In this document: positions 7,207 to 31,317 of the stretch, piece after piece
Layout of the letters: every line of letters begins with the position of its first letter
Position numbering within the stretch: position 1 is the first letter of the stretch
Made by a program: the position numbers and the translations under genes
Source of the DNA: an uncultured Syntrophomonas sp.
GTDB lineage: Bacteria > Bacillota > Syntrophomonadia > Syntrophomonadales > Syntrophomonadaceae
Reading direction: 5' to 3'
Assembly (NCBI GenBank): GCA_964501655.1
Contig: CAZCTN010000006.1
Coordinates: forward strand, 29,206-93,205
DNA length: 64,000 nucleotides
Notes under the pieces: generated by a model
Database searches by the model: none
Told to the model about the DNA's origin: nothing
What the model saw: the letters and a program-made list of their open reading frames with translations, nothing else

Positions 7207-9639
7207 GCTTATCCCCTCTACATCTCTCAGATAGGGATAAGATCCGCTTTCTATGCCCCAGGTATTTATGAAGTCCCAGTTTTCATAGGTCGTTTCGGTC
7301 TTTAACTGGCTGCTGGTCTTGGCTTGTTCGACCGGGGTGCTTACTCCTGCTTTATCTAAATCAAAATAGCTGCTCACCATGCTTACCGTACTTGGTGCTA
7401 TTCCATTTTTACTGCCGTTTCCACTTAGCTGACACAGGCTGTAGCTGTTAGTGATTTCCCTGCTTCCGCTGGTAGCGCTATATCCGATTATCCCACCTGC
7501 ATAACTGCTTGCTAGTATTACTCCTGATGCAAAGCTGTTTTCTACTGCTAAAGCTCCGGTCGAAGAATTATACCCAATCAATCCCCCGGCTTGAGTACAA
7601 CTGCTAGACCCAATTTCGCAATCGGCATAGCTGCTTTCTATTACGGTACTTCCGGCTCCGCCTACACTTCCTACTAAACCGCCGGCATACCTCCCACTGC
7701 TTTTACCTACAGTTCCACTGGCGCAGCTGTTGCTTATCCTGCTTTCCTCGCTGGTGCTGCTGCTTATGGAGCCGATTAACCCCCCAGCATAATTACTACT
7801 GCTACTGTTTATGGTTCCCCGGGATTTACTCCCAGTTATCTCTCCTCCCAGGGTATTACGTCCTATTAAACCGCCTGCATAATTACCGCCATATACTTCC
7901 GCTGCCGCACTACTGTCTGCTATGTCTCCGCCTTTGTTAGATCCAACCAGGCCGCCTGCTGTTGATCCCGACACTATCCCGCTGCTGATATGGCAGTTTT
8001 CTACTCTCCCGCCTTCCATTTCTCCTATGAGACTGCCTATACAGCTGCCTCCCCTAACGTCTATATTCTCTACTCGTAAATTCTTTATTACCGCGTTGTT
8101 GCAACTGCCAAATAATCCTACATTGCCTGTCCCATTAACGCTTACGTTCTTTATCACATGATCTCTGCCATCAAAGCTGCCGCCGAATGGCACCGTCCCG
8201 GTTAAGGGCTCTATGGCTGCCATTTCTAAGTCTATATCGTTTATCATGGCAAAGTGTTTGCCCGGATTATTCTTTACTCCCAGCAATTGTTCTTTGTTCT
8301 CGATTATATATGGATCAGCTTCTGTTCCTGCTCCCTCATACTGTTCTTTGCCTATCTTGACTTGTTCCGGATTGTCCACTTCTCTTAAATATGAATAGGT
8401 AGCTCCTTCTTCTATATCCCAGATGTTTTCATAATCAAAGCCGTTTACTTTCTTTATCAGCAGTTCCTTTTGGCTGGCATTATAGCAGGATGTTATATTG
8501 CTGCTGCTTAAGCTTCCTCCGCTAAGTACTCCTACGTTAAGATTCCCTTTTACTTCTCCTACGGTGTAGCTGGTCTTGAGGGTGCTGTCAATTCCTACCT
8601 GTCCTACTAAACCTCCTACATAGTTGTTTCCAGTTATGTTCCCCAGTGCAAAGCTGTTCTCTATATTTACTGTTTTGCTACTATGTCCTACTATACCCCC
8701 GGTATACTGGCTGGTTAATCCGTTGCTTTCTATATTCCCGGCAGCATAGCTCTGGGTAATCGTGGTAACTGACCCGCTTGTATCTCCTATTAGGCCCCCT
8801 GCTTTTCCTGCATCGCTTACCACCTTGCCGGTGACAAAACTTCTGGTTATTGTGCCACTAAAATACCCGGCCAAGCCCCCGACAATATTTTCTCCTTCTA
8901 CATCTATGCTGCTGCTGCTTCCTTCAATACCGTTACTCCCATATCCTACTATTCCCCCTACATTATTCTTGCCTTTGATTAAGCCTGCCGCCGTAACTTG
9001 GCTGTTTATTACCGCGCCGCTGCTATTATATCCGACTAAACCTCCTACATACTGGCTGCTGCTGTTTATGTAGGCTTTGCCTTTTACTTCGCACCCTTCT
9101 ATGCTTCCGCGCTATTCTCCTATCATTCCTCCTACTCTAATAGCTGAATTAGAATTGGTCTCTATACTCAAGTCTCCGTTTACCTGGTTGTTCTTTACCG
9201 TACTGCTGTTACTGCGTCCTATCATCCCGCCTATGTATGATGTACCGCTGCTGGTATCGCTTTTTATTACTATGTTTCCTTCTACCGCGCAGTCTTCTAC
9301 CTGCCCGTTGTTTATGTAGCCTATCAGTCCGCCTGCATTGCTCATTTTCCCTTCGCTGATATTCACATTCTCTATCGTTATGTTCTTTAATACGGCTCCA
9401 TCTCCATAAGCAAATAATCCGGCATAGCTCTGGTTCTTTATGCTTAAATTCTTTATCTTATGGCCATCCCCGTCCAAACTCCCTTTGAAGGCATTATTGT
9501 TTTCGCCTACCGGCTGCCAGTGCTGGTTCTCCAAGTCTATGTCGCTTCCTAATCTGTAATGGGCAGTTAAATTGTTCCTTATCCCTTGTAACTGCTCGGC
9601 GTTCTCTATTATATATGGGGCTTCTATGGTCCCCTGTCC
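7207..9639. repeat. Tandem duplication, copy 2 (2,433 bp); period 2,448 bp = 816 codons
   Basis: See copy 1. The copies are joined by a unique 15-nt junction 7192..7206 (ggctggcgtcgtacc), which encodes GTTPA on the minus strand. Confidence 0.9.
9112..9114 (-). other. In-frame amber codon 1 (context GGMIGE-TAG-RGSIEGC, followed by C)
   Basis: cta at 9112..9114 on the plus strand; flanking codons read directly. Confidence 0.9.
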
Positions 9640-18922: not shown

Positions 18923-19375
18923 TTACTTTCTCCCTCCCATCACATAGTCTTTACGCAGGGGATGCCCGTCAAAACCTTCCGGCAGCAGCACCCGAATCAA
19001 GTTGGGATGGCCTTTGAACTTAATCCCCATCAGATCATACACTTCTCTCTCCTGCCAATCGGCCGTGCTCCATATATGAATAAGAGAATCCACTTCAGCC
19101 GCATTCCGGGGAACCCGGGTCTTAACCAGCACCTGGTTGTTTTCCGGGATAGAATAAAGGTGATAGAGTATCTCAAACTCCTGGCCATAATCTACCGAAG
19201 TCAGATTGGCCAGGTGGTTAAAACCATATTCATCTCTGAGCGTCTTCATCAAGTTGAGCAGTTGGAGGCTGTCTATGCCTAAAATGGTGAAAAACTGATC
19301 ACTGCTGATTTTCAATCCATCCCCCAGCAAGCCTCCCAACTCCTGTACCATCTTCTCCATATTGAATTCCTGCAA
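18923..19375 (-). CDS. nuoC: NADH-quinone oxidoreductase subunit C
   Basis: 150-aa 30-kDa-subunit-like protein (WQEREVYDLMGIKFKGHPNL). Confidence 0.85.
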   Translation of the reverse strand: MQEFNMEKMVQELGGLLGDGLKISSDQFFTILGIDSLQLLNLMKTLRDEYGFNHLANLTSVDYGQEFEILYHLYSIPENNQVLVKTRVPRNAAEVDSLIHIWSTADWQEREVYDLMGIKFKGHPNLIRVLLPEGFDGHPLRKDYVMGGRK

Positions 19376-19379
19376 AATA

Positions 19380-19892
19380 TCAACTCCTCCGGTATTGGCC
19401 CTGCTGGACTTTCTTTTTTAATTCCAGCATGCCGTGGAACAGGGCCTCCGGCCTAACCGGGCAACCCGGGATATATACATCCACCGGTATTATGGAATCT
19501 ACTCCCGGCAGTACACTGTAGCCATCCTTAAAAGGTCCGCCGCTAATGGCACAATTACCCATGGCGATTACCCATTTGGGTTCCGGCATCTGAGCCCACA
19601 CCCGCAGTATCGCCGGCTTCATCTTAAGGGTAATAGGACCGGCTACCGTCAGCAGATCTGCTTGGCGGGGAACTGCTCTTACTACCTCATATCCGAACCG
19701 GGCTTGATCGAACCGGCCGGCCCCAGCCGCCATAACCTCGATAGGACAGCAATTACAGCCATAATTCAACGGCCAGAAGGACCAGGACCGTCCCCAGTTC
19801 CACAATTTATCAAAAGTAGTAACCAGTATATTGTTCCTGGCCAGTTCTTCCACATCATTTAGCTTATCATTGTCCTTGCTTTCTAATACCAT
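19380..19892 (-). CDS. nuoB: NADH-quinone oxidoreductase subunit B
   Basis: NuoB/PSST-like (CCPIEVMAAG..., GNCAISGGPF, IPGCPVRPEAL). The start is more likely ATG 19892 (purine-rich RBS) than 19922. Confidence 0.85.
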   Translation of the reverse strand: MVLESKDNDKLNDVEELARNNILVTTFDKLWNWGRSWSFWPLNYGCNCCPIEVMAAGAGRFDQARFGYEVVRAVPRQADLLTVAGPITLKMKPAILRVWAQMPEPKWVIAMGNCAISGGPFKDGYSVLPGVDSIIPVDVYIPGCPVRPEALFHGMLELKKKVQQGQYRRS

Positions 19893-20248
19893 TCCAAAGC
19901 CCCTTCTTTCCATGCGTACCATAAGCCGATCAAGAGAATAGCAATGAAGATTATCATTTCAATAAAAGCGAAAGGTCCTAAAACCTGGAATTTTACCGCC
20001 CAGGGATAGAGAAACAGTATTTCTACATCAAAAGCCAGAAATACCAGGGCATACAAAAAGTAGTTCACCTTAAATCTGATCCAGGTCTTCCCCCGGGTGT
20101 CTACCCCGCACTCATAAGTAAGAAACTTCTCATCATCCGGGGGCGCTTTAGGTTTGGGGCGGAAAAGCCAGGCCAGGGCCATGGCCGCGATGGGAAAGGC
20201 CAGGGTGAACAGAAAAAATAAACCCAGAGTCGGATATTCAGCCAACAA
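19883..20248 (-). CDS. nuoA: NADH-quinone oxidoreductase subunit A
   Basis: 121 aa, three TM helices, YECG motif (LTYECGVD); first gene of the operon; stop is TAG. Confidence 0.85.
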   Translation of the reverse strand: MLAEYPTLGLFFLFTLAFPIAAMALAWLFRPKPKAPPDDEKFLTYECGVDTRGKTWIRFKVNYFLYALVFLAFDVEILFLYPWAVKFQVLGPFAFIEMIIFIAILLIGLWYAWKEGALEWY

Positions 20249-20497: not shown

Positions 20498-20559
20498 GCG
20501 TGAAACACAAAATACCGCAGCAGGTATTCTAAAATAATAAAATAGAGGAGATGATAATA

Positions 20560-21834
20560 ATGGCCGACTACCGTCAGATGTGGAGCGATCTGGGGATGGA
20601 TCTGAAAAAACATGATATCTTGTGTGAAGTCCTGCCCGATGCTTTTGGGGGGGTATACCTCTCCCAGGAGAACCGGCCCGAAGGCATGGATTATTTCAAT
20701 TTCGTGGTGGCGGAAATCCATGGAGTAAGGCCGGCGGAACTGATCGAACACCAGCAGAAGGGGGGAAAAGTATTTGGCACCTTCTGTGTTTATGTTCCAG
20801 ACGAAGTAATATTCGCTGCCGGGGCCATCGCAACCGGACTATGCGGGGGTTCACAGTTCTGGGTGCCGGGCGGGGAGAAGGTCCTGCCGGCCAACACCTG
20901 CCCCCTGATCAAGGCTTCGGTGGGAGCCCGGTTGGATGGAACCTGCCCCTTTTTCAAGATAGCTGATATGTATATCGGGGAAACTACCTGTGACGGCAAG
21001 AAAAAGGCCTGGGAGATCCTTAACCAGGAAGTTCCGGTATATGTCATGGACCTGCCCCAGATGAAACGGGATCGGGATATTCAAGCCTGGAAAGAAGAAA
21101 TAAAGTCCCTGGTGCAGAAAGTGGAAGAATTCACCGGCAATACTGTTACCGTGGAAGCCCTGGCCCAAAATATCAAACTGATAAACGACAAGAGAAAAGC
21201 CCTGGCTCGCTTGTATGCACTGCGGAAGAATTCACCGGTGCCCATCAGCGGCAAAGATGCGCTGCTGATCACCCAGATCGCTTTCTATGACGACCCGGGC
21301 CGTTTTACCGCCCAGGTTAACGCCCTGTGCGATGAACTGGATCAGAGAGTGTTACGGGGCGAAGGCGTTTTCCCGGCTGATGCTCCCCGTATCATGATCA
21401 CTGGCACCCCTATGGCAATACCCAACTGGAAACTGCATCATGTAGTGGAAAGCCTGGGGGCAGCAGTGGTAGTGGAAGAACTATGTACCGGGGTGCGCTA
21501 TTTCGAGAACCCGGTAGATGAAAACGGCAGCACCATGGATGAACAATTGCAAGCCTTGTCCGATCGCTATATGAAAACCAACTGTGCCTGCTTTACCCCC
21601 AATACCGGACGAGTGGAAGATATTTTGAGACTGGCCAAAGATTACCGGGTGGATGGTATCATAGACTGCAACCTGCAGTTCTGCGGCCTGTATTCGACTG
21701 AAAGTTATCTGGTCCAGCAGGCGGTAAAAGAAGCCGGTCTTCCCATAATGCATTTGGAAACTGATTACAGTGAACAGGATTTTGAGCAGATCAGAACCAG
21801 GGTGGAAGCCTTCCTGGAGATGCTGCAAAAGTAA
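20560..21834 (+). CDS. 2-hydroxyacyl-CoA dehydratase / double-cubane-cluster (DCCP) family protein
   Basis: About 424 aa. Family-level recognition from the overall sequence pattern (Cys-rich HGD-D-like). ATG 20560 is better spaced from AGAGGAG than 20551. Confidence 0.65.
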   Translation: MADYRQMWSDLGMDLKKHDILCEVLPDAFGGVYLSQENRPEGMDYFNFVVAEIHGVRPAELIEHQQKGGKVFGTFCVYVPDEVIFAAGAIATGLCGGSQFWVPGGEKVLPANTCPLIKASVGARLDGTCPFFKIADMYIGETTCDGKKKAWEILNQEVPVYVMDLPQMKRDRDIQAWKEEIKSLVQKVEEFTGNTVTVEALAQNIKLINDKRKALARLYALRKNSPVPISGKDALLITQIAFYDDPGRFTAQVNALCDELDQRVLRGEGVFPADAPRIMITGTPMAIPNWKLHHVVESLGAAVVVEELCTGVRYFENPVDENGSTMDEQLQALSDRYMKTNCACFTPNTGRVEDILRLAKDYRVDGIIDCNLQFCGLYSTESYLVQQAVKEAGLPIMHLETDYSEQDFEQIRTRVEAFLEMLQK

Positions 21835-22168: not shown

Positions 22169-22527
22169 ATACCCCCTCAATGACCGTCCCCCTGGTTTCC
22201 ACCATAGACTTTCCACACTTGCCGTATTTAATTAACCAGGCGAATAGGCCCTTTTTACCGGGGCCGGTGCGAGCTAGCTTTTTAGAATTTGCTGATAGTT
22301 TATTCTAAGCTGCTACAAAAATATCCTCGGGGATTATTCCCCGGGGACCACCAACTGATAGGACCCAGTCTGATTGATCGCGTAAAGATGTTCTTTGTTT
22401 GCGTACCACAGATACAATAAATATTAAAAATGTAAAAAATTTCTTTTCGTTATATGAGTCACATGGTAATATAAACCCAATTATGCGCATGATGTTGTAA
22501 TACTAATGTAGAAAGGAAGAAACTTTG

Positions 22528-23088
22528 ATGAGAAAAAAGATAGTCAGAATAGCGTCTATTTGTATTATTATGCTATTGTGTTTTTCTTCAGTCGCACTAG
22601 GTGAGAGAAGAGTATTGCCTGTTACCGGTTATGAACAGGAGGGAATTGGATGGTGTTGGGCAGCGAGCGATAAAATGATAATAAAATACACTAAAGGCTC
22701 AGCTCCATCGCAGCAGTCTTTGGTTAACGATTATTCTACAGATCCTGACGGTGGAGCCAATTTGAGTGTAGCAAGAGACGCTTTGAACGATTATGGCGTA
22801 TCAAACTCAATCACGTACAATTGCTTAAGCTATACTGCTGTGAAGTCACAAATAAACTATGGCGATGATGGCCGACCAATATTTTGCAGATTGCAAAACG
22901 GCGATGGTTGGTTGTATAGCCATGCAGTTGTTCTTAGGGGTTATAATACTGACAATAGTCTGGTATATTATATTGATCCTTCGGATGGTTTGGGGCACGG
23001 CATTACTTATAGTAGATTTTGCGCTGGCGTAAAATATGATGGCTTCTATTCTGATTGGGATGGTACCATCTACAATAATCATGATTAG
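22528..23088 (+). CDS. Secreted papain-fold cysteine peptidase (C39-like/papain-like)
   Basis: Signal peptide. Gln is six residues before the Cys in YEQEGIGWCWAAS, the papain Q19/C25 spacing. His candidate in YSHAVVLRGY, Asp/Asn candidate in YYIDPSDG. RBS GAAAGGAAG. AT-rich relative to neighbouring genes. Confidence 0.6.
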   Translation: MRKKIVRIASICIIMLLCFSSVALGERRVLPVTGYEQEGIGWCWAASDKMIIKYTKGSAPSQQSLVNDYSTDPDGGANLSVARDALNDYGVSNSITYNCLSYTAVKSQINYGDDGRPIFCRLQNGDGWLYSHAVVLRGYNTDNSLVYYIDPSDGLGHGITYSRFCAGVKYDGFYSDWDGTIYNNHD

Positions 23089-23107: not shown

Positions 23108-23863
23108 ATGAAACGTACAAATATTTTATGGGTCTTATCTATTGCTTTATTAATTACTCTAATAACGTCAGGCATTGTATATGCAGTTTCACCTGATCAA
23201 CAAGCTAGAATATTTGCTGATGAATGCTTTTCTACTGGAATTGCAGAATCTGCTTTGGTTGATTGTGGTTATACTAGTGAAGAGGAGGCCACAAGGGCAC
23301 ATTTGGGTGAACCAATTAAGAATTATATGATATCTTATGATAAGCTTGATATGGGCAAAAGCTTAAAAGAGAACTCTCAGGAAATGCCATTTTACGTTTT
23401 GCCCATTATAGTTGATGGAGAAGTTGTTACTGACTTTATAATATTACTTGAGAATGGGAAATGGGAGTTCGTTAGTGTCGGCGGCAATATGAGCAAACTA
23501 GCGTATGAAATGGCAAAGGACAATAAGATTAATATAAGCCAGGTTAATATGCTTAGGTTTGGCGGACAAAGCTACTTATTTGCTGACAAAAATGGGAATG
23601 AAGTTGCGTACTCCCCCTATATATCCAGCCCCGAATTAGGAATCAATAAACAGAAGACGTATTCTTCAGAAAAAATTAAAAAACAATTGGAAATTAGACA
23701 AAAACAAATACAAGAAAAAATGAAAACCAGAGACACTGGTATAATGGGTGGAGAAAATTATGGCGCATATGGGCCGATTGATTTTCATCAGAGCAAGAGT
23801 GTTTTATCCAGGTTGCTAGGATACCTAGATTATTCAATAGTAAACCAGAGACCAGCTAACTAA
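23108..23863 (+). CDS. Hypothetical N-terminally membrane-anchored or secreted protein, partner of the peptidase
   Basis: GGAGG RBS 7 nt upstream and 19 nt after the peptidase stop. N-terminal hydrophobic helix ILWVLSIALLITLITSGIVYA. No family recognised. Confidence 0.55.
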   Translation: MKRTNILWVLSIALLITLITSGIVYAVSPDQQARIFADECFSTGIAESALVDCGYTSEEEATRAHLGEPIKNYMISYDKLDMGKSLKENSQEMPFYVLPIIVDGEVVTDFIILLENGKWEFVSVGGNMSKLAYEMAKDNKINISQVNMLRFGGQSYLFADKNGNEVAYSPYISSPELGINKQKTYSSEKIKKQLEIRQKQIQEKMKTRDTGIMGGENYGAYGPIDFHQSKSVLSRLLGYLDYSIVNQRPAN

Positions 23864-23876
23864 AGTCAAGCTTTTT
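23843..23876. repeat. 3' end of ORF 23108..23863 plus 13 nt; partner of the inverted repeat at 10342..10375
   Basis: See the partner entry. Confidence 0.8.
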
Positions 23877-24027
23877 GGCGTAAACCATGGGGACGGTTCT
23901 TGAAGGGGTCAATCGGAAGTTTTGCGCACGAAATAGGGCTCAACTATCGTTTTAGGCGATCTTTGAGTCCTTTAAACAGCCTACGCAATTTGGTATAATA
24001 TCACAAAAGATTTCGAGGATTAGTCAA

Positions 24028-24252
24028 TTGGATCGTATACATTTAGCGTGGGCTATAATTATCACCTGCTTCATAACCTGGTTAAGTATGCCTGCTATTG
24101 GACTTATTTGGATAAAAAATAACAGGCTAGACCTAAAATTCAAAATATTACTCGGAGTTGTTATTCTATTTGCCTTTGCCATTATTAGTATAGAGCTGGG
24201 GAACTACATGGATAACTATATTAATGCCAGCATACAAGCAACAGGGAAATGA
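24028..24252 (+). CDS. Hypothetical 74-aa two-TM protein (TTG start)
   Basis: Two clear hydrophobic helices. TGGTATAAT extended -10 lies about 30 nt upstream. Short length and TTG start keep confidence low. Confidence 0.35.
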   Translation: MDRIHLAWAIIITCFITWLSMPAIGLIWIKNNRLDLKFKILLGVVILFAFAIISIELGNYMDNYINASIQATGK

Positions 24253-24367
24253 ACCCCTGGGTTCCATTTAATAATTTTTTTATTGAAAATTCGGCAGAAA
24301 TTTGAGAGAATGAATGTGTAGGAATAATTCCGGCTGATGGCTGGTTTTATTGGAGATTAAGCAAATC

Positions 24368-24479
24368 AAAAAGGTAGGAAGGTAAGAACGGTAGGTATAA
24401 GAATGTGGAGTTATTCCCGTTGGGCTATTGGCCGATTGGGAATCAACGCTGTTCTTGAACTCCTGTGGGAGTTTTTTTT
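24368..24479 (+). promoter_or_regulatory. Leader element copy 1: purine-rich GGTA-repeat head, variable hairpin, intrinsic terminator
   Basis: AAAAAGGTAGGAAGGTAAGAACGGTAGGTATAAGAATGTGGAGTTA...; hairpin ATTCCC/GGGAAT; terminator AACTCC-TGTG-GGAGTT followed by T8. Confidence 0.6.
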
Positions 24480-24630
24480 ATTACCTTGATATTGTAGGCA
24501 AAGGAGGCGGAGATAACTAGTATCATCAACGGGGCTAATCACCCTTGTTATTACACTTTTACATTTGATACTGCGATTCAAAAGCCGGTCAAGGTTTTTA
24601 AAGTAGTATTGCAGGATGGTTTAACAATTT

Positions 24631-24749
24631 AAAAGGTAGGAAGGTTAGACGGTAGGTAAAAGAATGAGGTGTTAACCCGGTAATCCCAGTTGCGCTGTGC
24701 GCAAGCAGGATTCAGCACCATTCTTGGGACTCCTATGGGAGTTTTTTTT
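24631..24749 (+). promoter_or_regulatory. Leader element copy 2, homologous to copy 1; ends about 20 nt before the dctP RBS
   Basis: AAAAGGTAGGAAGGTTAGACGGTAGGTAAAAGAATGAGGTGTTA...; hairpins AATCC/GGATT and TTGCGC/GCGCAA; AAGAATG can pair with CATTCTT; terminator ACTCC-TATG-GGAGT followed by T8. Confidence 0.6.
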
Positions 24750-24783
24750 CTTGCCTGAAGCCAGTTACTTAAGGAGGAGAAAA

Positions 24784-25881
24784 ATGCGAGTATTGTTGGG
24801 TAGCAGAAAAAAGAGTTGGGGAATGAGCCAAAAATTGCTGTGTCTGATGCTGATCTTGGTGCTGAGCACAGCCGTGGGATGTTCGAATTCCAGTAATGAA
24901 TCCGGGCAGGAACAGAAGCAGGCCCCGGTTATTGAACTTAGACTGGCCCATTTTTTCCCCAGTACTCATCCCGCTGAAACTGAACTGATTCAGCCCTGGA
25001 TAGCAGCTATTGAAGAGGCCACCGCCGGTCAGGTCAAGATAGTAAGTTATCCCAATCAGACTCTGCTGAATGCTGATTCCATATATGCCGGAGTAGTAGA
25101 CGGCAGCGCTGATCTGGGTCTTTCCTGTTTTTCATATACTCGAGGACGCTTCCCGGTTTTGGAAGTCTTTGAACTCCCGGGAATAACTTATAATAATTCC
25201 AAAGTAGCCAGCAAGGTAGCCTGGGAAGGTATTCAGGAACTGAATCCCCAGGAAATCCAGGACACCAAGCTCATGATGGTACTGACTACCGGTCCTGGCG
25301 ACCTCTACACCAAGTCTGCGGTTCGCAGCCTGGATGATATTAAGGGCATGGAGATTAGAGCTACCGGATTGAGCGCTACTACCCTGCAGGCCCTGGGAGC
25401 CGTACCGGCCGCTATGCCCCAGTCAGATGCCTATGAGGCTTTGACTAAAGGTGTGGTTAAGGGTAATCTGGGCCCCATTGAAGTATTAAAGGGATGGAAG
25501 CAGGCCGAGGTCACCAGTTACATTACCCAGACCCCCTTCCTGTATAACACCTTGTTTTTTGTCACCATGAATCTTGATAAATGGAATTCATTGGAACCTG
25601 ATGTTCAACAGGCTATAGAAGCCATTAACGAAGAATATTTTGAAAAAGTTGCCATCTCCCTTTGGGATAAGCAAAATGAAGATGCATTAAAATATGCGGT
25701 GGATGAACAGGGGATGGAAGTAATCACTCTCACCCCGGAAGAAGCTGATAAATGGATCAGCCTGGTTCAGCCTATCCAGGATGATTTTGTGGCCCGGATG
25801 AACGCAGACGGCAAGCCGGGACAGGAAATACTGGATACCGTAAAACAACTGGCTGATAAATACAACGCCGAATTTAAATAA
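24784..25881 (+). CDS. dctP: TRAP transporter substrate-binding protein (DctP family), lipoprotein
   Basis: AAGGAGGAG RBS before ATG 24784; lipobox LSTAVGC; ELRLAHFFPSTHP... DctP-type pattern. Confidence 0.85.
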   Translation: MRVLLGSRKKSWGMSQKLLCLMLILVLSTAVGCSNSSNESGQEQKQAPVIELRLAHFFPSTHPAETELIQPWIAAIEEATAGQVKIVSYPNQTLLNADSIYAGVVDGSADLGLSCFSYTRGRFPVLEVFELPGITYNNSKVASKVAWEGIQELNPQEIQDTKLMMVLTTGPGDLYTKSAVRSLDDIKGMEIRATGLSATTLQALGAVPAAMPQSDAYEALTKGVVKGNLGPIEVLKGWKQAEVTSYITQTPFLYNTLFFVTMNLDKWNSLEPDVQQAIEAINEEYFEKVAISLWDKQNEDALKYAVDEQGMEVITLTPEEADKWISLVQPIQDDFVARMNADGKPGQEILDTVKQLADKYNAEFK

Positions 25882-25899
25882 ATCTGGAGGTGCAGTTAG

Positions 25900-26469
25900 A
25901 TGAACAAGGCAGCCCGGCTGGTAAAAGAAATAAGCCAGCAAATGGATTATTTGGCTGGTTTATGTATTACAGCGGTGATGCTGCTGGTGGTCAGTAATGT
26001 CCTGCTGCGGGTGTTTTTGCATCGTCCTATACTGGGGACCTACGAATATGTAAACATGCTTACGGCAGTAGGGATTGGCCTCGCTCTGGCCCACTGCGCT
26101 TATCAAAAAGGCCATATCGCGGTGGACTTTCTGCTGGAACGTTTTTCCCGGAAACTGCAGACAACAGCCCAGATTCTTACCAATATAATTGCCTTATCGT
26201 TCTGGAGTATGTCAGCATGGTACGTGGCCAAATATGCCCGTACCATGCTGGAAAGCAATACCGTATCACCTACCACCCAGTTTCCCCTGTGGCCGGTAGT
26301 CTTCCTGATAGCCTTCGGTCTTATGGCTTTAAGCCTGGTATTGACACTACAATTAACCCAATCATTGCAGATGGCTTTTGCCGCCGGTCTTCCTGATGGC
26401 TTGCGGCCAGCTGGTTTTAAGCCCAGTATGGACGCTCCGGTAAACCCTGCCATTGAAGAGGGTTTTTAG
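25900..26469 (+). CDS. dctQ: TRAP transporter small permease
   Basis: 189 aa, four TM helices, between dctP and dctM; stop is TAG. Confidence 0.8.
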   Translation: MNKAARLVKEISQQMDYLAGLCITAVMLLVVSNVLLRVFLHRPILGTYEYVNMLTAVGIGLALAHCAYQKGHIAVDFLLERFSRKLQTTAQILTNIIALSFWSMSAWYVAKYARTMLESNTVSPTTQFPLWPVVFLIAFGLMALSLVLTLQLTQSLQMAFAAGLPDGLRPAGFKPSMDAPVNPAIEEGF

Positions 26470-27780
26470 ATGAATTCACTGCTTGCGGGACTTTTAGGTC
26501 TGGCTGCTTTTATGCTTTTGTTGGTACTCAGAATGCCTATTGCCTATGCCATGGCCCTGGTGGGATTTGTAGGATTCAGTCTTCTGACCTCTTTTTCATC
26601 AGGGTTTAGCATGGTAGCCAAGGAGATTTACAATACTTTCTCATCCTATTCCTTGAGTGTTATCGTAATGTTTATCTGGATGGGCTTTCTGGCTTACTAT
26701 TCCGGTATTGGCACCCGCTTGTATGTCTTTGCTCATAAGATGATCGGGCACTGGCCGGGAGGCCTGGCTATTGCAACTCAGCTGGCCTGTGGGGTCTTTG
26801 GAGCCATCTGTGGTTCCAACACCGCTACCTCGGCCACCATGGGGGCCATTGCCCTGCCGGAAATGAAGAAATACCATTATGATATGTCTCTGGCTACCGC
26901 CAGTATTGCTGCCGGGGGAGTACTGGGAGTCTTGATTCCACCCAGTGTTATTTTTATCGTTTACGGTATGGCTACGGAACAATCGATAGGACGGCTCTTT
27001 ATGGCCGGTATCATTCCCGGCCTCCTGTTGATGGTGTTCTATATTATAACTATCTGGATATTAACCCGACGCCGGACTGACTTGGGTCCCCCGGGCCCCA
27101 GGGCAGATTGGAAGGAGCGGCTGAAAAGCCTGCGGGGAGGTCTGGCTGAAGTACTGTTTGTGTTTGCCCTGTCCATGGGTGGTCTCTTTGCCGGCTGGTT
27201 TACACCCACTGAAGCCGGAGCAATTGGAGCCGCAGGAGTATTGGCAGCAGCTTTGGCCGGCAGGCACCTGAACTGGGAGGGCTTCAAACAATCTCTCTTT
27301 GATACTACTCGCACCACTGCCATGATCATGCTCATGATTGCAGGCGCCATGATGTTCGGTCGCTTTATGGCTATCAGCCGGGTTCCCTTTGAACTGGCTT
27401 CGTGGGCAGGCTCCCTGGCCTTTCCTCCCGTGCTGGTACTGGCCATAATTCTGCTGATCTACCTGGTGCTGGGCTGCTTTATTGATGCCCTGGCACTTAT
27501 CCTGCTTACCATTCCTATCTTTTTCCCAGTGGTGGTGAATACCCTGGGGTACGATCCCATCTGGTTCGGAGTAATTATGGTTATGGTAGTTGCCATGGGT
27601 GTTATTACACCGCCGGTGGGAATGAATGTGTATGTTATTAAAGGAGTAGCACCGGAAATTCCGGTAGAATTAATATTCAAAGGTGTCTGGCCCTTTTTAA
27701 TCGCTATCATATTGTGTCTGGCAGTACTGATAGCCTTCCCGGCCCTGGCTACCTTCCTCCCTTCCCTGCTGATAAGGTAA
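26470..27780 (+). CDS. dctM: TRAP transporter large permease
   Basis: 436-aa polytopic protein; start abuts the dctQ stop. Confidence 0.85.
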   Translation: MNSLLAGLLGLAAFMLLLVLRMPIAYAMALVGFVGFSLLTSFSSGFSMVAKEIYNTFSSYSLSVIVMFIWMGFLAYYSGIGTRLYVFAHKMIGHWPGGLAIATQLACGVFGAICGSNTATSATMGAIALPEMKKYHYDMSLATASIAAGGVLGVLIPPSVIFIVYGMATEQSIGRLFMAGIIPGLLLMVFYIITIWILTRRRTDLGPPGPRADWKERLKSLRGGLAEVLFVFALSMGGLFAGWFTPTEAGAIGAAGVLAAALAGRHLNWEGFKQSLFDTTRTTAMIMLMIAGAMMFGRFMAISRVPFELASWAGSLAFPPVLVLAIILLIYLVLGCFIDALALILLTIPIFFPVVVNTLGYDPIWFGVIMVMVVAMGVITPPVGMNVYVIKGVAPEIPVELIFKGVWPFLIAIILCLAVLIAFPALATFLPSLLIR

Positions 27781-27803: not shown

Positions 27804-28862
27804 TCAGCGGTTGATATATCGGGGAACCTTTTCTTGAGGATTGACCCGGTCCAAATCATACAAAACCCCGTCCGGATCGATGGAATAAGGTTGAAGTTTT
27901 TCCGCTATTCGGGCTTTTTCCATTTCCAGGTTGGACTGACCCGGGATCCATATATCGATAAGAATAGGACGTTCATTGACCGGCATCTGGTCAACCTGGG
28001 CCAGGGCCCGATTGCACACTTCGCAATGGCTGGCAATAAACAGAACATATTCCCGGCTAAGATCAATCTGCACCGGGCTTCCATCGGCCCGATAGAAGGT
28101 AGTCAAAATTACTGCATCTCCTGCATCCGCGGCATCGTTCCCGACCTGCTCATCTGCCTGATGTTCATCAACAGTCTGACTTCTTTCTTCCCTGGTGTTC
28201 TTGTCAGGAAGGGTTTCAAGGTTTTCAGTATCGCTAATTTCTTCCGAGCTGCCCCGCGGTTCCATCCCTGCTTCAGACTGGGTATCAGAATCCTGGATGA
28301 AACTTTCAGAACTTGAAGGAGTATCTTGCCCGGGCTGGGACACTGCAATACTGGATGACTCTTCGATTCTGCTGTTCGCTTGATTAGCCCCATCACTGAA
28401 GTTCAGCAGTAGCAGGAACGCCCCGACTGCCAGCAGCGAGATCAGGAGCATACACCTTACCGGCCTGGATTCTCTTTGCTGATAACCCAGCAGGAGCCAT
28501 AACCCGACCATAATAACGGCCGAGATACAGCAGAAGACACAATACTGTTTAAGCACAAATATCTGTATCAGGACCATATTCATTGACACTAGGGCACCCC
28601 CAGCAGCCAGCAACAGAGCGTAATTTCTTTTTCCCCTGACCAGGCACAGAAGAATCAGCAGGTAACCCAGTATTCCGGCATAGGCAATGGGCACCCCGAA
28701 GGGCTGACCCCAAAAGGTGTTATGAACTGTGTCACACGCTTCACAGCCGTATTTGGAGAAACTGATATAAAGACTGTCGATAACCCCTATTGCCGCCAGC
28801 AATACAGGCAAACGCTGATTATTCATCCCCATGATCCTTCCACTTGGAATTTGATGCTTCAT
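27804..28862 (-). CDS. Vitamin K epoxide reductase (VKOR) domain fused via an acidic low-complexity linker to a thioredoxin-like CxxC domain
   Basis: N-terminal four or five TM helices with loop Cys pair (GCEAC) and membrane CxxC (YCVFCC). Linker of about 110 aa rich in D/E/S/Q. C-terminal domain carries HCEVC. The real start may be an internal Met (about 28826). Confidence 0.7.
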   Translation of the reverse strand: MKHQIPSGRIMGMNNQRLPVLLAAIGVIDSLYISFSKYGCEACDTVHNTFWGQPFGVPIAYAGILGYLLILLCLVRGKRNYALLLAAGGALVSMNMVLIQIFVLKQYCVFCCISAVIMVGLWLLLGYQQRESRPVRCMLLISLLAVGAFLLLLNFSDGANQANSRIEESSSIAVSQPGQDTPSSSESFIQDSDTQSEAGMEPRGSSEEISDTENLETLPDKNTREERSQTVDEHQADEQVGNDAADAGDAVILTTFYRADGSPVQIDLSREYVLFIASHCEVCNRALAQVDQMPVNERPILIDIWIPGQSNLEMEKARIAEKLQPYSIDPDGVLYDLDRVNPQEKVPRYINR

Positions 28863-29183
28863 AATTCCTTAAAAATAAACAACTACGGGCAGGGTCAACC
28901 CTCCACCGCAACGAGCTGGAGATTAACATCCACCACCGGCTTTGCTAACAGAACCGATCGTTTAAGAGGGGGAGTCATCTTTTCGCCTCGTAATAATATT
29001 ATCACAGCCGGGATTATGTGAATAGATAAGATGAACGCAGGGGGGGGGCTTGCTGCCGCCAATTGTCCTGTTCTATAAGACCAAGGAGGATTTGTTGCCT
29101 TCTCCCCGATATCCAAGAGCCCCCGCTAATGGTTCAGCAGGGGCTCTTGATCTGCTCTGGTAATTTCACTCCAGGTCTGGAGG

Positions 29184-29366
29184 CTATTTCTTGTCCGCTA
29201 ATTCTTCCAGGTAATCGTCATCTTCCCGGGCTTTGCGGAAATTATTCAGGGCTTTGCCCATGGACTCACCCACCTTGGGTAATTTCCCCGGTCCGACAAT
29301 AATCAGTATGATAGCCAGTATAAATATCATTTCCCAGGGACCAAAGTTGCCAATTAATCCAAACAT
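29184..29366 (-). CDS. tatA: Twin-arginine translocase subunit TatA/E
   Basis: 60 aa: N-terminal TM helix, then the amphipathic GPGKLPKVGESMGKALNNFRKA. Confidence 0.85.
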   Translation of the reverse strand: MFGLIGNFGPWEMIFILAIILIIVGPGKLPKVGESMGKALNNFRKAREDDDYLEELADKK

Positions 29367-29524
29367 CTTTTCATCCTCCTCTTCCTAAGACCGGACTGCT
29401 CAGAGTCTGAATCCTCTGGTTGCCGGTTGTTCTCGCCGCTGCAGATCTCAAACAAAATATACTGTGGCCATTAAGGCCATGGATATCATCGCATCTGGTA
29501 CCGGGAGCCTTTCCCCATGTTTTC

Positions 29525-30310
29525 TTAGCCATAGCTGTGCAGCCCTGCCAGGAGATAGTTTACTCCAAAGAAGGTGAAGAGCACCAGTATGAATCCCGCT
29601 ATTACCACAAGGTTGGCATTGCTGCCTTTCCAGCCTTTGCTGCGATATATATGCAGGTATATGGCATAGATTATCCAGGTTACCAATGCCCAGGTCTCTT
29701 TGGGGTCCCAGCTCCAGTAAGTTCCCCAGGCTTGTTCTGCCCATACTCCTCCCAACACTATGGAGATGGACAGCATCACGAACCCGCCTCCTACTGCTCT
29801 GTATACATTTATATCATGACTGTTATCCTTTTTCAGCAGCTGCACCAGAGCCAGGGCTGCCGCCAGGGCAAAGGCGCTGTAGGCAAATACAGCAGTCAAT
29901 ACGTGGCTGGTCAGCCAGGGACTCTTCAGGGCCGGCATCAGTGGAGTAAAGCTGCCATGCTGCTGGGGCATGAGTAAAAATACCGTTCCCAGCAACAGAG
30001 CGGTGATAACCATCAGACCGGCTCCCCCGCTGCGAGTCCGACTCGTCTTTTCATAAAGTAAATACAGCAGTACACTCACAAAAGTGAAGCAAAGCAAAAA
30101 TTCATAACCGTCAGTTAAAGGCAGCCGGCCGGTCATAATGGTTCGTGCTGTCAGGGCAGCCAGGTTGGCCAGTGCTCCGGCTATGGCGGCAATAACGGCC
30201 GCCTGGAGCAGCTTTTCACGCCTGCTCGAATATCCCAGGCCATACAGGCAACTACTAATCAAGAAAAGCAGCAAGGCCAGTCCGGTACTGGTTTTTATTA
30301 TTTCTGCCAT
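29525..30310 (-). CDS. ccsA: Cytochrome c biogenesis protein CcsA/ResC (System II heme handling)
   Basis: WWD-type motif WGTYWSWDPKETWALVTW. Confidence 0.85.
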   Translation of the reverse strand: MAEIIKTSTGLALLLFLISSCLYGLGYSSRREKLLQAAVIAAIAGALANLAALTARTIMTGRLPLTDGYEFLLCFTFVSVLLYLLYEKTSRTRSGGAGLMVITALLLGTVFLLMPQQHGSFTPLMPALKSPWLTSHVLTAVFAYSAFALAAALALVQLLKKDNSHDINVYRAVGGGFVMLSISIVLGGVWAEQAWGTYWSWDPKETWALVTWIIYAIYLHIYRSKGWKGSNANLVVIAGFILVLFTFFGVNYLLAGLHSYG

Positions 30311-30312
30311 AT

Positions 30313-31317
30313 CTATTCCTCCCGGGTTTTCCTGTCCGAGCTGTCTCCGGTCCGCCTAAAAATACCCAGCTCCGCCAAAACTACCCCTAACATGAACAAG
30401 ATCCCTCCTGCTCCAGCATAAGGCAAGCCCGGATCTTCTTTAACTTTGAACACCGAATATGATTTGAGACCGTTGAATTCAAGGGCAGCATTGGAGTCAA
30501 TTTCGATCCTTTCTCCAAAAGGAGCCGCCCCCACTCCCAGAAGCTGCTCTTCCTGGTAGATGGAATAGATAATCTTAGGGTTATTGGGCTGAAGACTCTT
30601 GCTTTCCATCCCATAGGACGGGTCGAAATCGGGGACATATTTGAAAACTTTAACCCCCCACCTGCTGCCTGGAATGTTCAGCAGCTGCCCTTCTACGGCA
30701 GCAGTATTCATCACCTTTCCCTCAGCTTCCAGCGTCACCCCCACCATGCTGCCATAACTTTGCTGATATATTTTGATTCCGTCATAGCGCAGCGGATAGT
30801 TTACCCTAATGGTTTCCTGCTGCTCCAGCTGATCCCCCTTAAATACACTTACCCGGGACAAATACTGGGAGGGCATATTATTGTCATACAGCTCAATTTC
30901 AAAGGCTTCCAGCAGCAAAGTCACCGCTTCCCCATTTCTTTCCTCAGCAATAACAGCTTTTTCTCCTTCGGCCAGCCTCACCGTACCGCTCTGTCCGGCC
31001 CAGCTGTTAATCATACCCCCGATCAGGATCAGCATCAATCCGCTGTGCAATATCAACCATCCCCATTGCCGCACCTTGCTCAAAAGGTCCTTCCCGGCCC
31101 CCAGCAGTTTTCTCAACTTAAGGCAGCGATTGATGGTACATAAACCCAGGTTGAAAAACAGCAAGATTATCAGGATATTGAACAGCAAATGATGATAAAA
31201 TCTGTCCGGCAGAATACTGCTCCCCACAGCTGAGAATAAAGCCAGCAATGCCAGCAAGACCAATCCGGTTTTCATGGAGGAAAAAGTCTTAAAGGTATAA
31301 TGAAAGATCCTGCTCAT
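30313..31317 (-). CDS. resB: Cytochrome c biogenesis protein ResB/Ccs1 (short form)
   Basis: Immediately upstream of ccsA; N-terminal TM pair plus a large extracytoplasmic domain and a C-terminal TM helix. Confidence 0.7.
   Translation of the reverse strand: MSRIFHYTFKTFSSMKTGLVLLALLALFSAVGSSILPDRFYHHLLFNILIILLFFNLGLCTINRCLKLRKLLGAGKDLLSKVRQWGWLILHSGLMLILIGGMINSWAGQSGTVRLAEGEKAVIAEERNGEAVTLLLEAFEIELYDNNMPSQYLSRVSVFKGDQLEQQETIRVNYPLRYDGIKIYQQSYGSMVGVTLEAEGKVMNTAAVEGQLLNIPGSRWGVKVFKYVPDFDPSYGMESKSLQPNNPKIIYSIYQEEQLLGVGAAPFGERIEIDSNAALEFNGLKSYSVFKVKEDPGLPYAGAGGILFMLGVVLAELGIFRRTGDSSDRKTREE

Follow-up and report, generated by a model that had tools for sequence, protein, structure and literature searches.

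The window, a 64-kb stretch of a contig from an uncultured Syntrophomonas sp., contained a dctPQM operon encoding a TRAP transporter, preceded by two tandem homologous leader elements, each with its own terminator (Table 1). This arrangement, proposed in an earlier sequence-only reading of the DNA, was confirmed with a covariance model, a terminator scan and Pfam. The covariance model, built from 63 homologous leaders, had exactly two significant matches in the window, and there was no third copy. As had been described, the copies shared a nearly identical purine-rich head and differed in the central hairpin (85% column identity in the alignment). Shuffles of the window gave an expectation of 0 chance matches for a 29-nt pattern of the head. 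Five parts made up each copy: an A-tract, a head of three direct repeats of 8 nt (GGUAGRAN), helix P1, which covaries and closes a hypervariable hairpin, the conserved sequence AAACUCCUAY, and a short terminator hairpin with a tail of U7–8. The distance from the second T-tract to the RBS of dctP was approximately 22 nt, close to the 20 nt estimated before. A 74-aa ORF just upstream of the region (24028–24252) looked membrane-like and was without a Pfam match.

Table 1. Features of the dctPQM leader region, in window coordinates. Parts of the leader are predicted.
Feature	Position	Strand	Basis
Promoter-like site, TTGAAA, 17-nt spacer, (TG)GAGAAT	24283–24311	+	Consensus scan, 9/12 matches, upstream TG
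5' module: one GUAGGAAUAA unit at the predicted transcript 5' end, then small hairpin CCGGCUGAUGGCUGG and U-rich tail	24316–24344	+	Sequence, hairpin scan
Leader copy 1, complete attenuator (predicted)	24367–24479	+	Covariance-model match, 84.6 bits, E 4.9e-19, full model length
Copy 1 head: GGUAGGAA, GGUAAGAAC, GGUAGGUA; A-tract 24368–24372 before them	24373–24397	+	Sequence, logo
Copy 1 helix P1: AAGAAU..GGAGUU with AACGCU/GUUCUU, closing variable hairpin UAUUCCC...GGGAAUC	24399–24456	+	MFE fold, covariance-model alignment, family P1a covariation
Copy 1 terminator: AACUCC-UGUG-GGAGUU and U8	24458–24479	+	Consensus scan (hairpin 24457–24474, then T-run)
Relic RBS AAAGGAGG, without start codon or ORF	24500–24507	+	Comparison of 24480–24515 with 24750–24786
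NAG cluster upstream of copy 2: GUAGUAUUGCAGGAUGG; UAG-N5-CAG	24603–24619	+	Sequence
Leader copy 2, complete attenuator (predicted)	24629–24749	+	Covariance-model match, 92.9 bits, E 4.5e-21
Copy 2 head: GGUAGGAA, GGUUAGAC, GGUAGGUA; A-tract 24631–24634 before them	24635–24658	+	Sequence, logo
Copy 2 helix P1, closing variable hairpin: AAGAAU 24660–24665 and GGUGUU 24668–24673, partners AGCACC 24714–24719 and AUUCUU 24720–24725	24660–24725	+	MFE fold, covariance-model alignment, covariation
Copy 2 terminator: (GG)GACUCC-UAUG-GGAGU and U8	24727–24749	+	Consensus scan (hairpin 24726–24745, then T-run)
Operon dctPQM, RBS AAGGAGG 24771–24777	24771–27780	+	Pfam DctP, DctQ, DctM; NCBIfam TRAP_S1, dctM
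dctP	24784–25881	+	ATG at 24784; Pfam
dctQ	25900–26469	+	Pfam
dctM	26470–27780	+	Pfam

The putative promoter upstream of copy 1 would place the transcript start near position 24318. A −10 box was also present just 5' of the first GUAG unit in the leaders of MFS transporter genes and in the L079 leader. The arrangement of the 5' module recurred in loci L001–L007 and in L067 and L073. Between the two copies, AAGGAGGCGAAG was kept in L001–L007, and the relic RBS in the window was probably copied along when the leader duplicated.

The covariance-model search of relatives that the sequence-only reading had suggested returned 103 matches in 99 sources, and these displayed covariation in P1 (see below). 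The leader was present at every dctP-ortholog locus searched from L001–L080, L078 being left out of the count as its sequence is cut just upstream of dctP, and it lay 5' of essentially every dctPQM ortholog examined in approximately 80 species-level genomes. The leader-bearing taxa were Syntrophomonadaceae, Pelotomaculum, Desulfotomaculaceae, Desulfosporosinus and Anaerovoracaceae. Metagenome loci added a second context, in which the leader stood 5' of a gene encoding an SfMCT-like MFS monocarboxylate transporter, with an acyl-CoA ligase gene after it. Two leaders per locus occurred only in the Syntrophomonas clade (L001–L007 and the window). No conserved neighbour genes surrounded dctPQM in 80 genomes, and none except the acyl-CoA ligase gene was seen in 49 metagenome loci. 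A candidate regulator gene adjoining the leader was absent in about 126 of 129 loci. A search of Rfam 15 (cmscan of 23800–25200, both strands, permissive filters) gave 0 matches at E ≤ 10 to any family, including riboswitches, T-boxes, leaders, ANTAR targets and PyrR sites; the earlier reading had likewise not recognized the elements as a named riboswitch or T-box. A literature search found no described leader of TRAP-transporter genes and no HutP targets outside hut operons. The two elements in the window are tandem copies of one widespread leader RNA that is absent from Rfam. With over 100 instances across several families of anaerobic Bacillota, this leader forms a large family of regulatory RNAs, and it probably switches carboxylic-acid transporter genes on and off by an early stop of transcription.

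A logo of 87 distinct leaders showed the head as AAAA-(GGUAGRAN)(GGUARKAC)(GGUAGGNA)-AAARG, with a period of 8 nt. Each unit contained GGUAG, and the UAG of unit 3 was near-invariant. Four GGTA repeats had been counted before; they are better read as three direct repeats of 8–9 nt, GGUAGGAA, GGUWAGA(A)C and GGUAGGUA. In the most divergent clade (L067, L073 and L079), only the UAG was kept in each unit. The three units of the head were separated by spacers of 5–6 nt, and a second, irregular cluster of repeats was often located 10–25 nt upstream. Additional YAG triplets upstream of the head were enriched throughout the family, the excess peaking sharply at a spacing of 8 nt (73 observed, 12 expected). 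Two other explanations of the head were considered and rejected. A G-quadruplex built from the GG tracts was dismissed since the versions of Anaerovoracaceae and L046 had too few such tracts, and a CsrA site (GGA) since the heads of Syntrophomonas and of the L079 type contained a single GGA.

RNAalifold gave no structure on a plain MAFFT alignment, because the loops and P1 were misaligned, and this alignment was therefore replaced by a structure given by hand and a covariance-model realignment. The closing helix seen earlier (AAGAATG with CATTCTT or GTTCTT) was borne out by covariation across 101 distinct sequences, with double changes at all six P1a pairs. The covariation score of P1 was 0.284, compared with 0.180 in shuffles (0 of 500 as high) and 0.08–0.12 when the helix was slid. 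Cognate P1 duplexes had a mean energy of −10.1 kcal/mol, versus −7.8 kcal/mol for non-cognate ones. The interior of P1 was hypervariable, with a length of about 25–170 nt and no conservation.

The terminator hairpin was 93% paired over the 101 distinct sequences, with U5–8 directly 3' of it. With a G+C-containing hairpin followed by a U-tract, both copies in the window end in predicted intrinsic (Rho-independent) terminators. The hairpins were weak (median −4.6 kcal/mol without A/U extension). CUCC was found in all 101 sequences and the following U in 85 of 87. The loop varied (UAUG, UGCG, UAUUAG and others). Variation in the stem was confined to the 3' side (UA 61, UG 39); a further constraint thus acts on the 5' strand.

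The terminator 5' arm was complementary to the head repeats, UCCUAY pairing with GUAGGA; we refer to this alternative helix as P0. Antiterminator logic had already been suggested, and the general idea held, with a different competitor: the proposed GGAGUU (24408–24413) was specific to copy 1 and unconserved, and the conserved competitor is GUAGGA in the head. At least one pairing unit was present in 87 of 87 leaders, compared with 62 of 87 for shuffled purine-rich heads, in which such pairing was also fairly common. Of 261 units, 169 paired with the arm, versus 82 (maximum 91) after shuffling. The pairing unit differed by taxon: units 1 and 3 in 32 leaders, every unit in 20, just unit 1 in 13 and just unit 3 in 10. 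In copy 1, UCCUG (24461–24465) can pair with UAGGA (24375–24379), and the MFE structure of the RNA ending at the hairpin was the P0 form. Copy 2 has two options, CCUAU (24732–24736) with GUAGG of unit 3 (24652–24656) and UCCUAU with GUAGGA of unit 1 (24636–24641).

Folding of the whole set suggested a switch between P0 and the terminator. For transcripts ending ahead of the 3' arm, folding left the 5' arm mostly paired to a head unit in 71 of 87 leaders. When the RNA ended at the hairpin, the MFE structure had P0 in 69 of 87 and the terminator in 18 of 87; with three U's added the terminator won in 61 leaders, so that the predicted balance flips with the number of U's included. With the head blocked, the terminator formed in 85–87 of the 87 leaders. 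Covariation in P0 was thin: one compensatory case was found (UAGGA/UCCUA in L121 versus CAGGA/UCCUG in L119), and two heads, independent of each other, had CAGG only and were both accompanied by UG loops (P about 0.06). We infer the formation of P0 in vivo mainly from conservation and energy models. Judged by its sequence, the leader is a transcription attenuator, with a conserved segment that is complementary to the terminator and predicted to be mutually exclusive with it.

These observations incline us, with moderate confidence, towards an attenuator that depends on a factor, its logic resembling that of TRAP and its NAG repeats those of HutP, in which each copy adopts one of two mutually exclusive folds. 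During read-through, one GUAGGA repeat would pair with UCCUAY, that is, the terminator 5' arm and the first loop bases, and the resulting P0 would close over P1. The terminator hairpin could then not form, and RNA polymerase would continue into dctPQM. P1 probably keeps the head and the terminator arm near each other. In the opposite state, a trans-acting factor would occupy the repeats and leave the 5' arm free, whereupon the ACUCC/GGRGU hairpin with U7–8 would form and transcription would end. This TRAP-like logic is deduced from folding and from the complementarity between repeats and arm. The sensor is most likely a protein bound to the three short repeats, and we infer that binding of this protein effector turns expression off. 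The factor would most likely be an oligomeric, ligand-activated RNA-binding protein recognizing (G)GUAG units 8 nt apart. Duplication in the Syntrophomonas clade appears to have copied the entire unit together with the now-dead RBS, so polymerase would have to pass two switches in series. Since the MFS monocarboxylate transporter and the acyl-CoA ligase are predicted to be under the control of this leader too, the signal is presumably tied to the carboxylic acid that is transported.

Several observations do not sit easily with the factor-dependent attenuator, among them the 8–9-nt period, the thin covariation in P0, the dependence of the folding balance on the number of U's and the pairing of shuffled heads with the arm. 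An OFF switch operated by a bound effector is unusual for uptake and catabolic genes. The scarcity of linked regulator genes is more typical of a riboswitch than of a protein factor; the gene for TRAP, mtrB, is also unlinked from its targets.

The sequence-only reading had left a choice between a doubled riboswitch and a protein-dependent attenuator. Of these, a trans-acting factor is likelier than a riboswitch, because the repeats are single-stranded, the pairing unit varies by taxon and the only covarying helix carries a hypervariable insert. As a metabolite riboswitch, doubled in the window, the leader would have an aptamer composed of P0, P1 and the purine-rich strand between them, and a carboxylic acid, acyl-CoA or related metabolite would stabilize either P0 (ON) or a fold within the head (OFF). 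We regard this as unlikely, even though the leader is encoded in cis with few linked regulators, places two unrelated transporter families and a ligase under one element, as is typical of riboswitches, and has about 30 strongly conserved nucleotides beside a covarying helix. Tandem arrangements are also known for riboswitches. However, the conserved block is made of three direct repeats without an internal pairing partner, the extra upstream clusters vary in number and position, and the repeat that pairs with the arm is not fixed, so there is no constant junction geometry. A riboswitch would generally place its conserved nucleotides in the loops or junctions of a compact aptamer with covarying helices in fixed geometry, whereas P1, with its unconserved interior, is the sole covarying helix here and the conserved nucleotides are single-stranded. 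The retention of only UAG per unit in the most divergent clade and the lack of an Rfam match also argue against it. Leaky ordinary terminators or RNA-stability elements without any sensing, with repeats as relics of duplication and control by the promoter only, would suit the weak hairpins and the recent duplication of the region together with its dead RBS. We consider this very improbable, since conservation of the head and of the terminator 5' arm extends over several Bacillota families and to leaders before three different gene families, P1 covaries, and placing a terminator between a promoter and the sole operon that it serves is sensible only if termination is conditional. Least probable of all is ribosome-mediated attenuation by a leader peptide starting at an AUG after unit 3. 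Many leaders do have AAGAAUG or AAGGAUG 3' of the head, and copy 1 could encode a 28-aa peptide (AUG UGG...) with W2, W7 and W22. Yet the AUG was not conserved (the commonest bases at logo positions 13–15 were A in 50, U in 33 and G in 32 of the 87 leaders), many leaders had none at all (e.g., L011 and L075), the ORF of copy 2 had three codons, and ORF length, from 1 to about 28 codons, and content were unconserved.

HutP itself was examined as the regulator. With one face on the head and the other on the upstream NAG cluster, a histidine-activated hexamer would control a histidine- or urocanate-related TRAP transporter. In L067, L073 and L079 the gene immediately 5' of the leader, the classical position of hutP, encoded a homolog of HutP (44–45% identity to B. 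subtilis HutP; Pfam HutP 98.6 bits), and the gene order in L084 was hutH-hutU-ftcD-hutI-fchA-hutP-[promoter+leader]-dctPQM, with a head-like repeat of 8-nt period between ftcD and hutI. D. alcoholivorax (L081 and L020) and the MAG JAEXOR (L194 and L077) each had both HutP and the leader. The three NAG units and second cluster resemble HutP sites, and a canonical hut site (L202) tolerates a 5-nt spacer. Against this, hutP adjoined the leader in one clade only (3 of about 129 loci), and every hutP inspected belonged to a cluster of hut genes, which it usually immediately preceded; a role of hutP paralogs as dedicated regulators was rejected on the same grounds, and because such a leader was absent at the neighbouring MFS gene in L190 and at the gene after hutI in L192. 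In the 64-kb window hutP was not found, and ten small ORFs scanned there had no match to HutP or TRAP domains. None of the best 120 matches of two HutP searches was named as from Syntrophomonas, Pelotomaculum or Desulfosporosinus, most matches being nameless. In genomes with both elements, the period of the hut leader was exactly 7 nt, and its repeats abutted a different terminator (GGGGCAAAACUC); in the dctP leader the period was 8–9 nt. Among canonical clostridial hut leaders with a usable intergenic region, seven of eight had exactly 7 nt and the eighth had 8+7. The operon of MFS transporter and acyl-CoA ligase has no obvious link to histidine. Finally, binding to the head would favour termination, opposite to the known role of HutP. 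HutP is thus a weak candidate, and a genuine HutP target seems doubtful to us.

With some hesitation, we think it quite possible that the leader is the target of an unrecognized ligand-responsive attenuation protein, neither HutP nor TRAP, that binds GGUAG spaced at 8 nt, or that it is a protein-free, repeat-based RNA sensor. If so, the new protein or sensor would govern carboxylic-acid uptake and CoA activation in Bacillota that live syntrophically or reduce sulfate, among them Syntrophomonas, Pelotomaculum, Desulfotomaculaceae and Desulfosporosinus. In the proposed mechanism, the repeats would serve as both the effector-binding platform and interchangeable antiterminator strands, combining features of TRAP and HutP. 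The leader offers a defined RNA bait for the regulator, and the ligand of the regulator could in turn point to the substrate of a widespread transporter family. The genes concerned (TRAP, MFS and acyl-CoA ligase) belong to organisms central to syntrophic fatty- and aromatic-acid degradation and to sulfate reduction, anaerobes in which gene regulation is almost unexplored.

The commonest version of the terminator (ACUCCUACGGGAG) is identical to what we take to be the hairpin of 16S rRNA helix 14 with its UACG tetraloop (EUB338 target ACUCCUACGGGAGGCAGC). In contrast to the rRNA, the leader terminator has a varying loop and lies in an mRNA leader, and the identity is probably a convergence on a stable C(UACG)G hairpin combined with the need to complement UAGGAG. 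Tandem riboswitches and attenuators (TPP, glycine, T-boxes) likewise place two complete sensor-plus-terminator units before one operon. The leader differs from them in having no recognizable aptamer or Rfam match, and its tandem state is a recent clade-specific duplication (L001–L007 and the window) and not a property of the family.

The closest parallel in logic is the B. subtilis trp leader with TRAP (MtrB). TRAP bound to NAG repeats blocks the trp antiterminator, and TRAP also controls the transporter gene trpP. In both systems, NAG-type triplets lie in the 5' strand of the antiterminator, and their occupancy lets (in our leader, would let) a downstream intrinsic terminator form; the gene for the regulator lies (here, would lie) at a distance in the genome. 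A TRAP site has 9–11 (G/U)AG repeats with 2–3-nt spacers and a period of 5–6 nt. The leader instead has three (plus n) units at a period of 8–9 nt, each unit longer (GGUAG plus GA), and a structured P1 insert between repeats and terminator. A tblastn search with B. subtilis MtrB found no mtrB in the window and all loci, which cover a small part of each genome. The earlier reading had not recognized a TRAP or HutP site. The (U/C)AG direct repeats of the head, often with a second upstream cluster, are nevertheless a hallmark of both, although their spacing fits neither (8–9 nt versus 5–6 and 7 nt). HutP binds 3+3 NAG in two clusters with a 12–17-nt linker (PMC2425495). The layout of the leader site, with 3 + n NAG units in two clusters, appears closest to HutP sites by analogy: both have three NAG units per site and a second NAG cluster (linker of 10–25 nt here), hutP adjoins the leader in one clade, and both concern termination control in Bacillota. 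In canonical HutP sites, the NAG motifs recur at exactly 7 nt, with 4-nt spacers, and are located within the terminator stem or right beside it, and HutP binding therefore melts the terminator. The units of the leader lie 50–170 nt upstream of the stem, with P1 between, and are complementary to the arm without being part of the terminator; the predicted output is therefore inverted relative to HutP.

Two homologous leader stretches lie at window positions 24368–24479 and 24631–24749, upstream of the TRAP transporter operon, as the sequence-only reading had stated. The copies shared 85% column identity in alignment: their purine-rich 5′ part was almost identical, the centre differed yet could still pair, and the 3′ end was nearly the same in both (...UUCUU-N-ACUCCURUGGGAGU-U8). 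The terminator-like hairpin that had been assigned to each copy was also reported independently by a consensus scan. The 29-nt pattern of the 5′ part, here termed the head, would not be expected to arise by chance, as none of 100 shuffles contained a match. The Rfam check proposed in that reading for the leader region was run as a permissive search of window 23800–25200, which gave no match whatever to a known family. With a covariance model built from 63 leaders, only copies 1 and 2 were found in the window (84.6 and 92.9 bits).

The DctP protein of the window has many orthologs at >65% identity, the nearest (81–88%) in Syntrophomonas MAGs, which makes a Syntrophomonas genome the most likely source of the window. 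We sampled 80 dctP loci (L001–L080), one per species-level genome, from Syntrophomonas and Syntrophomonadaceae, Pelotomaculum, Desulfotomaculaceae (Desulfallas, Desulfotruncus, Desulfoscipio), Desulfosporosinus, Gracilibacter, Anaerovoracaceae-like MAGs and others. A similar leader was located 5′ of dctP in essentially all 80 loci. The covariance model matched every one of them that was searched; L078, which ends just upstream of dctP, was omitted. In all, the model gave 103 full-length matches in 99 sources. The original observation holds and reaches further than the window could show. The leader is an undescribed, widespread attenuator family. Two copies per locus occurred only in L001–L007 and the window, which marks the tandem arrangement as a recent duplication within the Syntrophomonas clade. 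The ribosome-binding site (RBS) seems to have been duplicated with it. Judging from the sequence, AAAGGAGG at window 24500–24507 (context 24480–24520), 3′ of the copy-1 terminator, is probably a dead RBS copied in this event; it is similar to the RBS region between copy 2 and dctP, but leads to neither a start codon nor an ORF. At the same place, AAGGAGGCGAAG was kept in L001–L007. The dehydratase and peptidase genes 5′ of the leader (see table) and two ORFs past the peptidase, which had no Pfam match, were not conserved beside dctPQM in other genomes.

Features of the window around the tandem leader and predicted antiterminator (P0) pairings
Feature	Window position	Strand	Remark
Nuo-like complex I subunits (30 kDa, 20 kDa, chain 3)	18923–20248	−	
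2-hydroxyglutaryl-CoA dehydratase D-component family protein	20551–21834	+	2.5 kb 5′ of leader
C39-like peptidase	22525–23088		after dehydratase D-component gene
Predicted P0, copy 1	24375–24379 with 24461–24465		UAGGA with UCCUG; folding
Predicted P0, copy 2	24652–24656 with 24732–24736		GUAGG with CCUAU; folding
dctP, dctQ, dctM	dctP ATG 24784		transporter operon downstream of leaders; AAGGAGG before ATG
VKOR, ResC, ResB-type cytochrome c maturation genes	27804–31317	−	other side of TRAP operon

In a logo of 87 distinct leaders aligned on the last repeat, the head consensus was AAAA-(GGUAGRAN)-(GGUARKAC)-(GGUAGGNA)-AAARGRA, with three direct repeats at a period of 8 nt, at times 9 nt. Unit 3 was nearly invariant (G, A and G each in 87 of 87), and the most divergent clade (L067, L073, L079) retained UAG alone in each unit. 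YAG triplets were also enriched in the 130 nt 5′ of the head (530 versus 375 expected), with a sharp peak at 8-nt spacing (73 versus 12 expected); 50 of the 87 leaders had at least one such upstream pair. Where promoters could be guessed (window 24283–24311, L079 and leaders of the MFS type described below), the predicted transcript start fell right at such a YAG unit. At the predicted start in the window, a 5′ module (24316–24344) consists of one GUAGGAAU(AA) unit, a small hairpin and a U-rich tail. The module is also present upstream of the head in L001–L007, L067 and L073, and is conserved across distant clades; it might serve as a first binding site or make polymerase pause or stop.

The head is followed by P1, a helix that encloses an insert of 25 to ~170 nt without conserved sequence; its strands in the window are AAGAAUG... 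and ...CAUUCUU. In a model-fitted alignment of 101 distinct sequences, 73% of P1 cells were paired, compared with 65% after shuffling, and the covariation score was 0.284, compared with 0.180 for shuffled (0 of 500 as high) and 0.08–0.12 for slid alignments. All six outer pairs showed changes on both sides (one pair, for example, was AU in 37, GU in 28 and GC in 25), while the inner pairs aligned poorly and were 56% paired. An alignment-free test agreed, since cognate 5′ and 3′ strands formed duplexes of −10.1 kcal/mol on average, versus −7.8 kcal/mol for non-cognate strands. P1 is followed by UUYYU-N-AAACUCCUAY, the hairpin ACUCC/GGRGU and U5–8.

The terminator stem was asymmetrically conserved: CUCC was invariant, the next base was U in 85 of 87 leaders and then came A or G, with the variation confined to the 3′ side (UA 61, UG 39). 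CUCCUAY is complementary to RUAGGAG, the repeat unit, and in transcripts ending before the 3′ arm, the 5′ arm of the terminator was mostly paired to a head unit (P0) in 71 of 87 leaders. When the RNA ended at the hairpin and the head was free, the minimum free energy structure contained the terminator in 18 and P0 in 69 of 87 leaders; with three U's added, these numbers became 61 and 26. Blocking the head, at a cost of 3.4–4.4 kcal/mol, gave the terminator in 85–87 of 87 with either 3′ end. The hairpin by itself was weak (median −4.6 kcal/mol). Every leader had at least one unit that could form at least 5 pairs at −4 kcal/mol or lower with the arm. In total, 169 of 261 units could do so, whereas shuffled heads averaged 82 such units and reached 91 at most. 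True covariation of P0 was thin: the close relatives L121 (UAGGA/UCCUA) and L119 (CAGGA/UCCUG) differ in a compensatory manner, and UG loops accompany the two independent heads whose units are all CAGG. The three 8-nt repeats are probably an effector platform and, at the same time, interchangeable antiterminator strands set against a sequence-constrained terminator, so that a factor bound to the repeats would favour termination. The direction (off upon binding), the effector and its ligand are all inferred here. The commonest terminator version, ACUCCUACGGGAG, has the sequence of 16S rRNA helix 14, the target of probe EUB338; this likeness concerns the terminators at window 24458–24473 and 24729–24742 and those of most loci, and is probably convergence on the stable C(UACG)G hairpin.

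When metagenomes were scanned for the terminator motif, 105 loci were obtained, of which ~42 were 5′ of DctP orthologs; in L182, the motif preceded a DctP paralog (41% identity). In at least nine metagenome loci, the same head, P1 and terminator preceded an MFS transporter, assigned to the NCBIfam equivalog SfMCT L-lactate/monocarboxylate transporter (407 bits, cut-off 320). The following gene encodes an acyl-CoA ligase of the AMP-forming type, which matched a long-chain fatty-acid–CoA ligase subfamily best, though below cut-off; the same ligase family adjoins several TRAP transporter loci. L141 carries a 406-aa transposase-like ORF between the MFS and ligase genes (1658–2878 in coordinates of the reverse-complemented locus, leader on +), and L114 has no transporter gene after the leader, only an opposite-strand 505-aa ORF; in each case the MFS-type operon seems to have been disrupted. 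The solved structures nearest to the DctP of the window were 4N6D, 4PGN/4PGP and 4NAP (E ~1e-51), followed by the 7NR2 group. We take 4PGN, 4PGP and 4NAP to be Desulfovibrio Dde_0634 with bound indole-pyruvate, indole-acetate and D-Trp, and the 7NR2 group to be binders of lignin-derived aromatic acids. Of this, binding of IAA by Dde_0634 is confirmed (PMC9543091). Butyrate import by a Syntrophomonas wolfei TRAP transporter, which may or may not be the ortholog, has been assumed (PMC11087674). Taken together, transporters, ligase and DctP relatives point to a regulon for uptake and CoA activation of some monocarboxylic acid.

A riboswitch, in which the leader RNA itself would bind the ligand, would suit the transporter-type regulon, the tandem arrangement and the lack of a linked regulator gene. 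We nevertheless consider it improbable, as the conserved block is a repeat without a pairing partner of its own, extra repeats vary in number and position, the interior of P1 is free to vary, and the unit closing P0 is not fixed (units 1 and 3 paired with the arm in 32 leaders, all three in 20, unit 1 only in 13 and unit 3 only in 10). Control of the operon by a leader peptide is unlikely because the AUG 3′ of the head is not conserved. The preferred reading, a factor that binds the repeats, raises the question of its identity. Direct NAG repeats in A-rich single-stranded RNA are the signature of ring-shaped attenuation proteins. One of these, HutP, binds three NAG per face in two clusters 12–17 nt apart (PMC2425495). 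With Bacillus subtilis HutP (sequence checked against PDB 1VEA) as the tblastn query, homologs with the Pfam HutP domain were detected in L067, L073 and L079, each directly 5′ of the leader; the genes on the longer contig L084 run hutH-hutU-ftcD-hutI-fchA-hutP-[own promoter and leader]-dctPQM. Desulfotruncus alcoholivorax and MAG JAEXOR likewise carry both HutP and the leader, though unlinked. The adjacency of hutP and leader is, however, restricted to one clade, hutP was found in 0 of 49 metagenome leader loci, the hutP contexts inspected were hut operons every time, and the best matches listed included no HutP named as coming from Syntrophomonas, Pelotomaculum or Desulfosporosinus.

Canonical clostridial hut leaders have a very conserved, regular motif, CCCA-UAG-N4-UAG-N4-UAG-GGGGCAAAACUC-loop-GAGUUUUGCCC-U6. 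It was located between hutP and hut genes in L084 (3160–3240), L195, L198, L200, L202, L190 and L192; L190 has two hutP paralogs in one hut cluster. The period of these leaders was exactly 7 nt in seven of eight and 8 + 7 nt in the eighth, and differed from the 8–9 nt of the dctP leader even within genomes carrying both. Moreover, the hut NAGs abut the terminator stem, so that HutP binding melts it, whereas those of the dctP leader form the antiterminator strand, so that binding should favour termination. We therefore regard HutP as a doubtful reader of the repeats. Within the hut cluster of L084, the ftcD–hutI region (7790–7830) contains a head-like repeat of 8-nt period (CAGAAGGU UAGACGGA UAGAAGGC UGGAGGGU UAGAAAAAG), which has AAGGTTAGACGG in common with copy 2 of the window and gave no match with the covariance model. 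Approximately 130 nt 3′ of it (~7950–7990), near the hutI RBS, is a ACUCCUUU...AAAGGAGU hairpin with no U-tract.

For the attenuation protein TRAP (MtrB), the logic fits the leader but the geometry does not, as TRAP needs 9–11 triplets with 2–3-nt spacers; no mtrB was found in the small amount of DNA available. Given the weaknesses of HutP and the mismatched geometry of TRAP, we leave the factor unnamed. The leader works like a TRAP system and partly looks like a HutP site, but lacks defining features of both.
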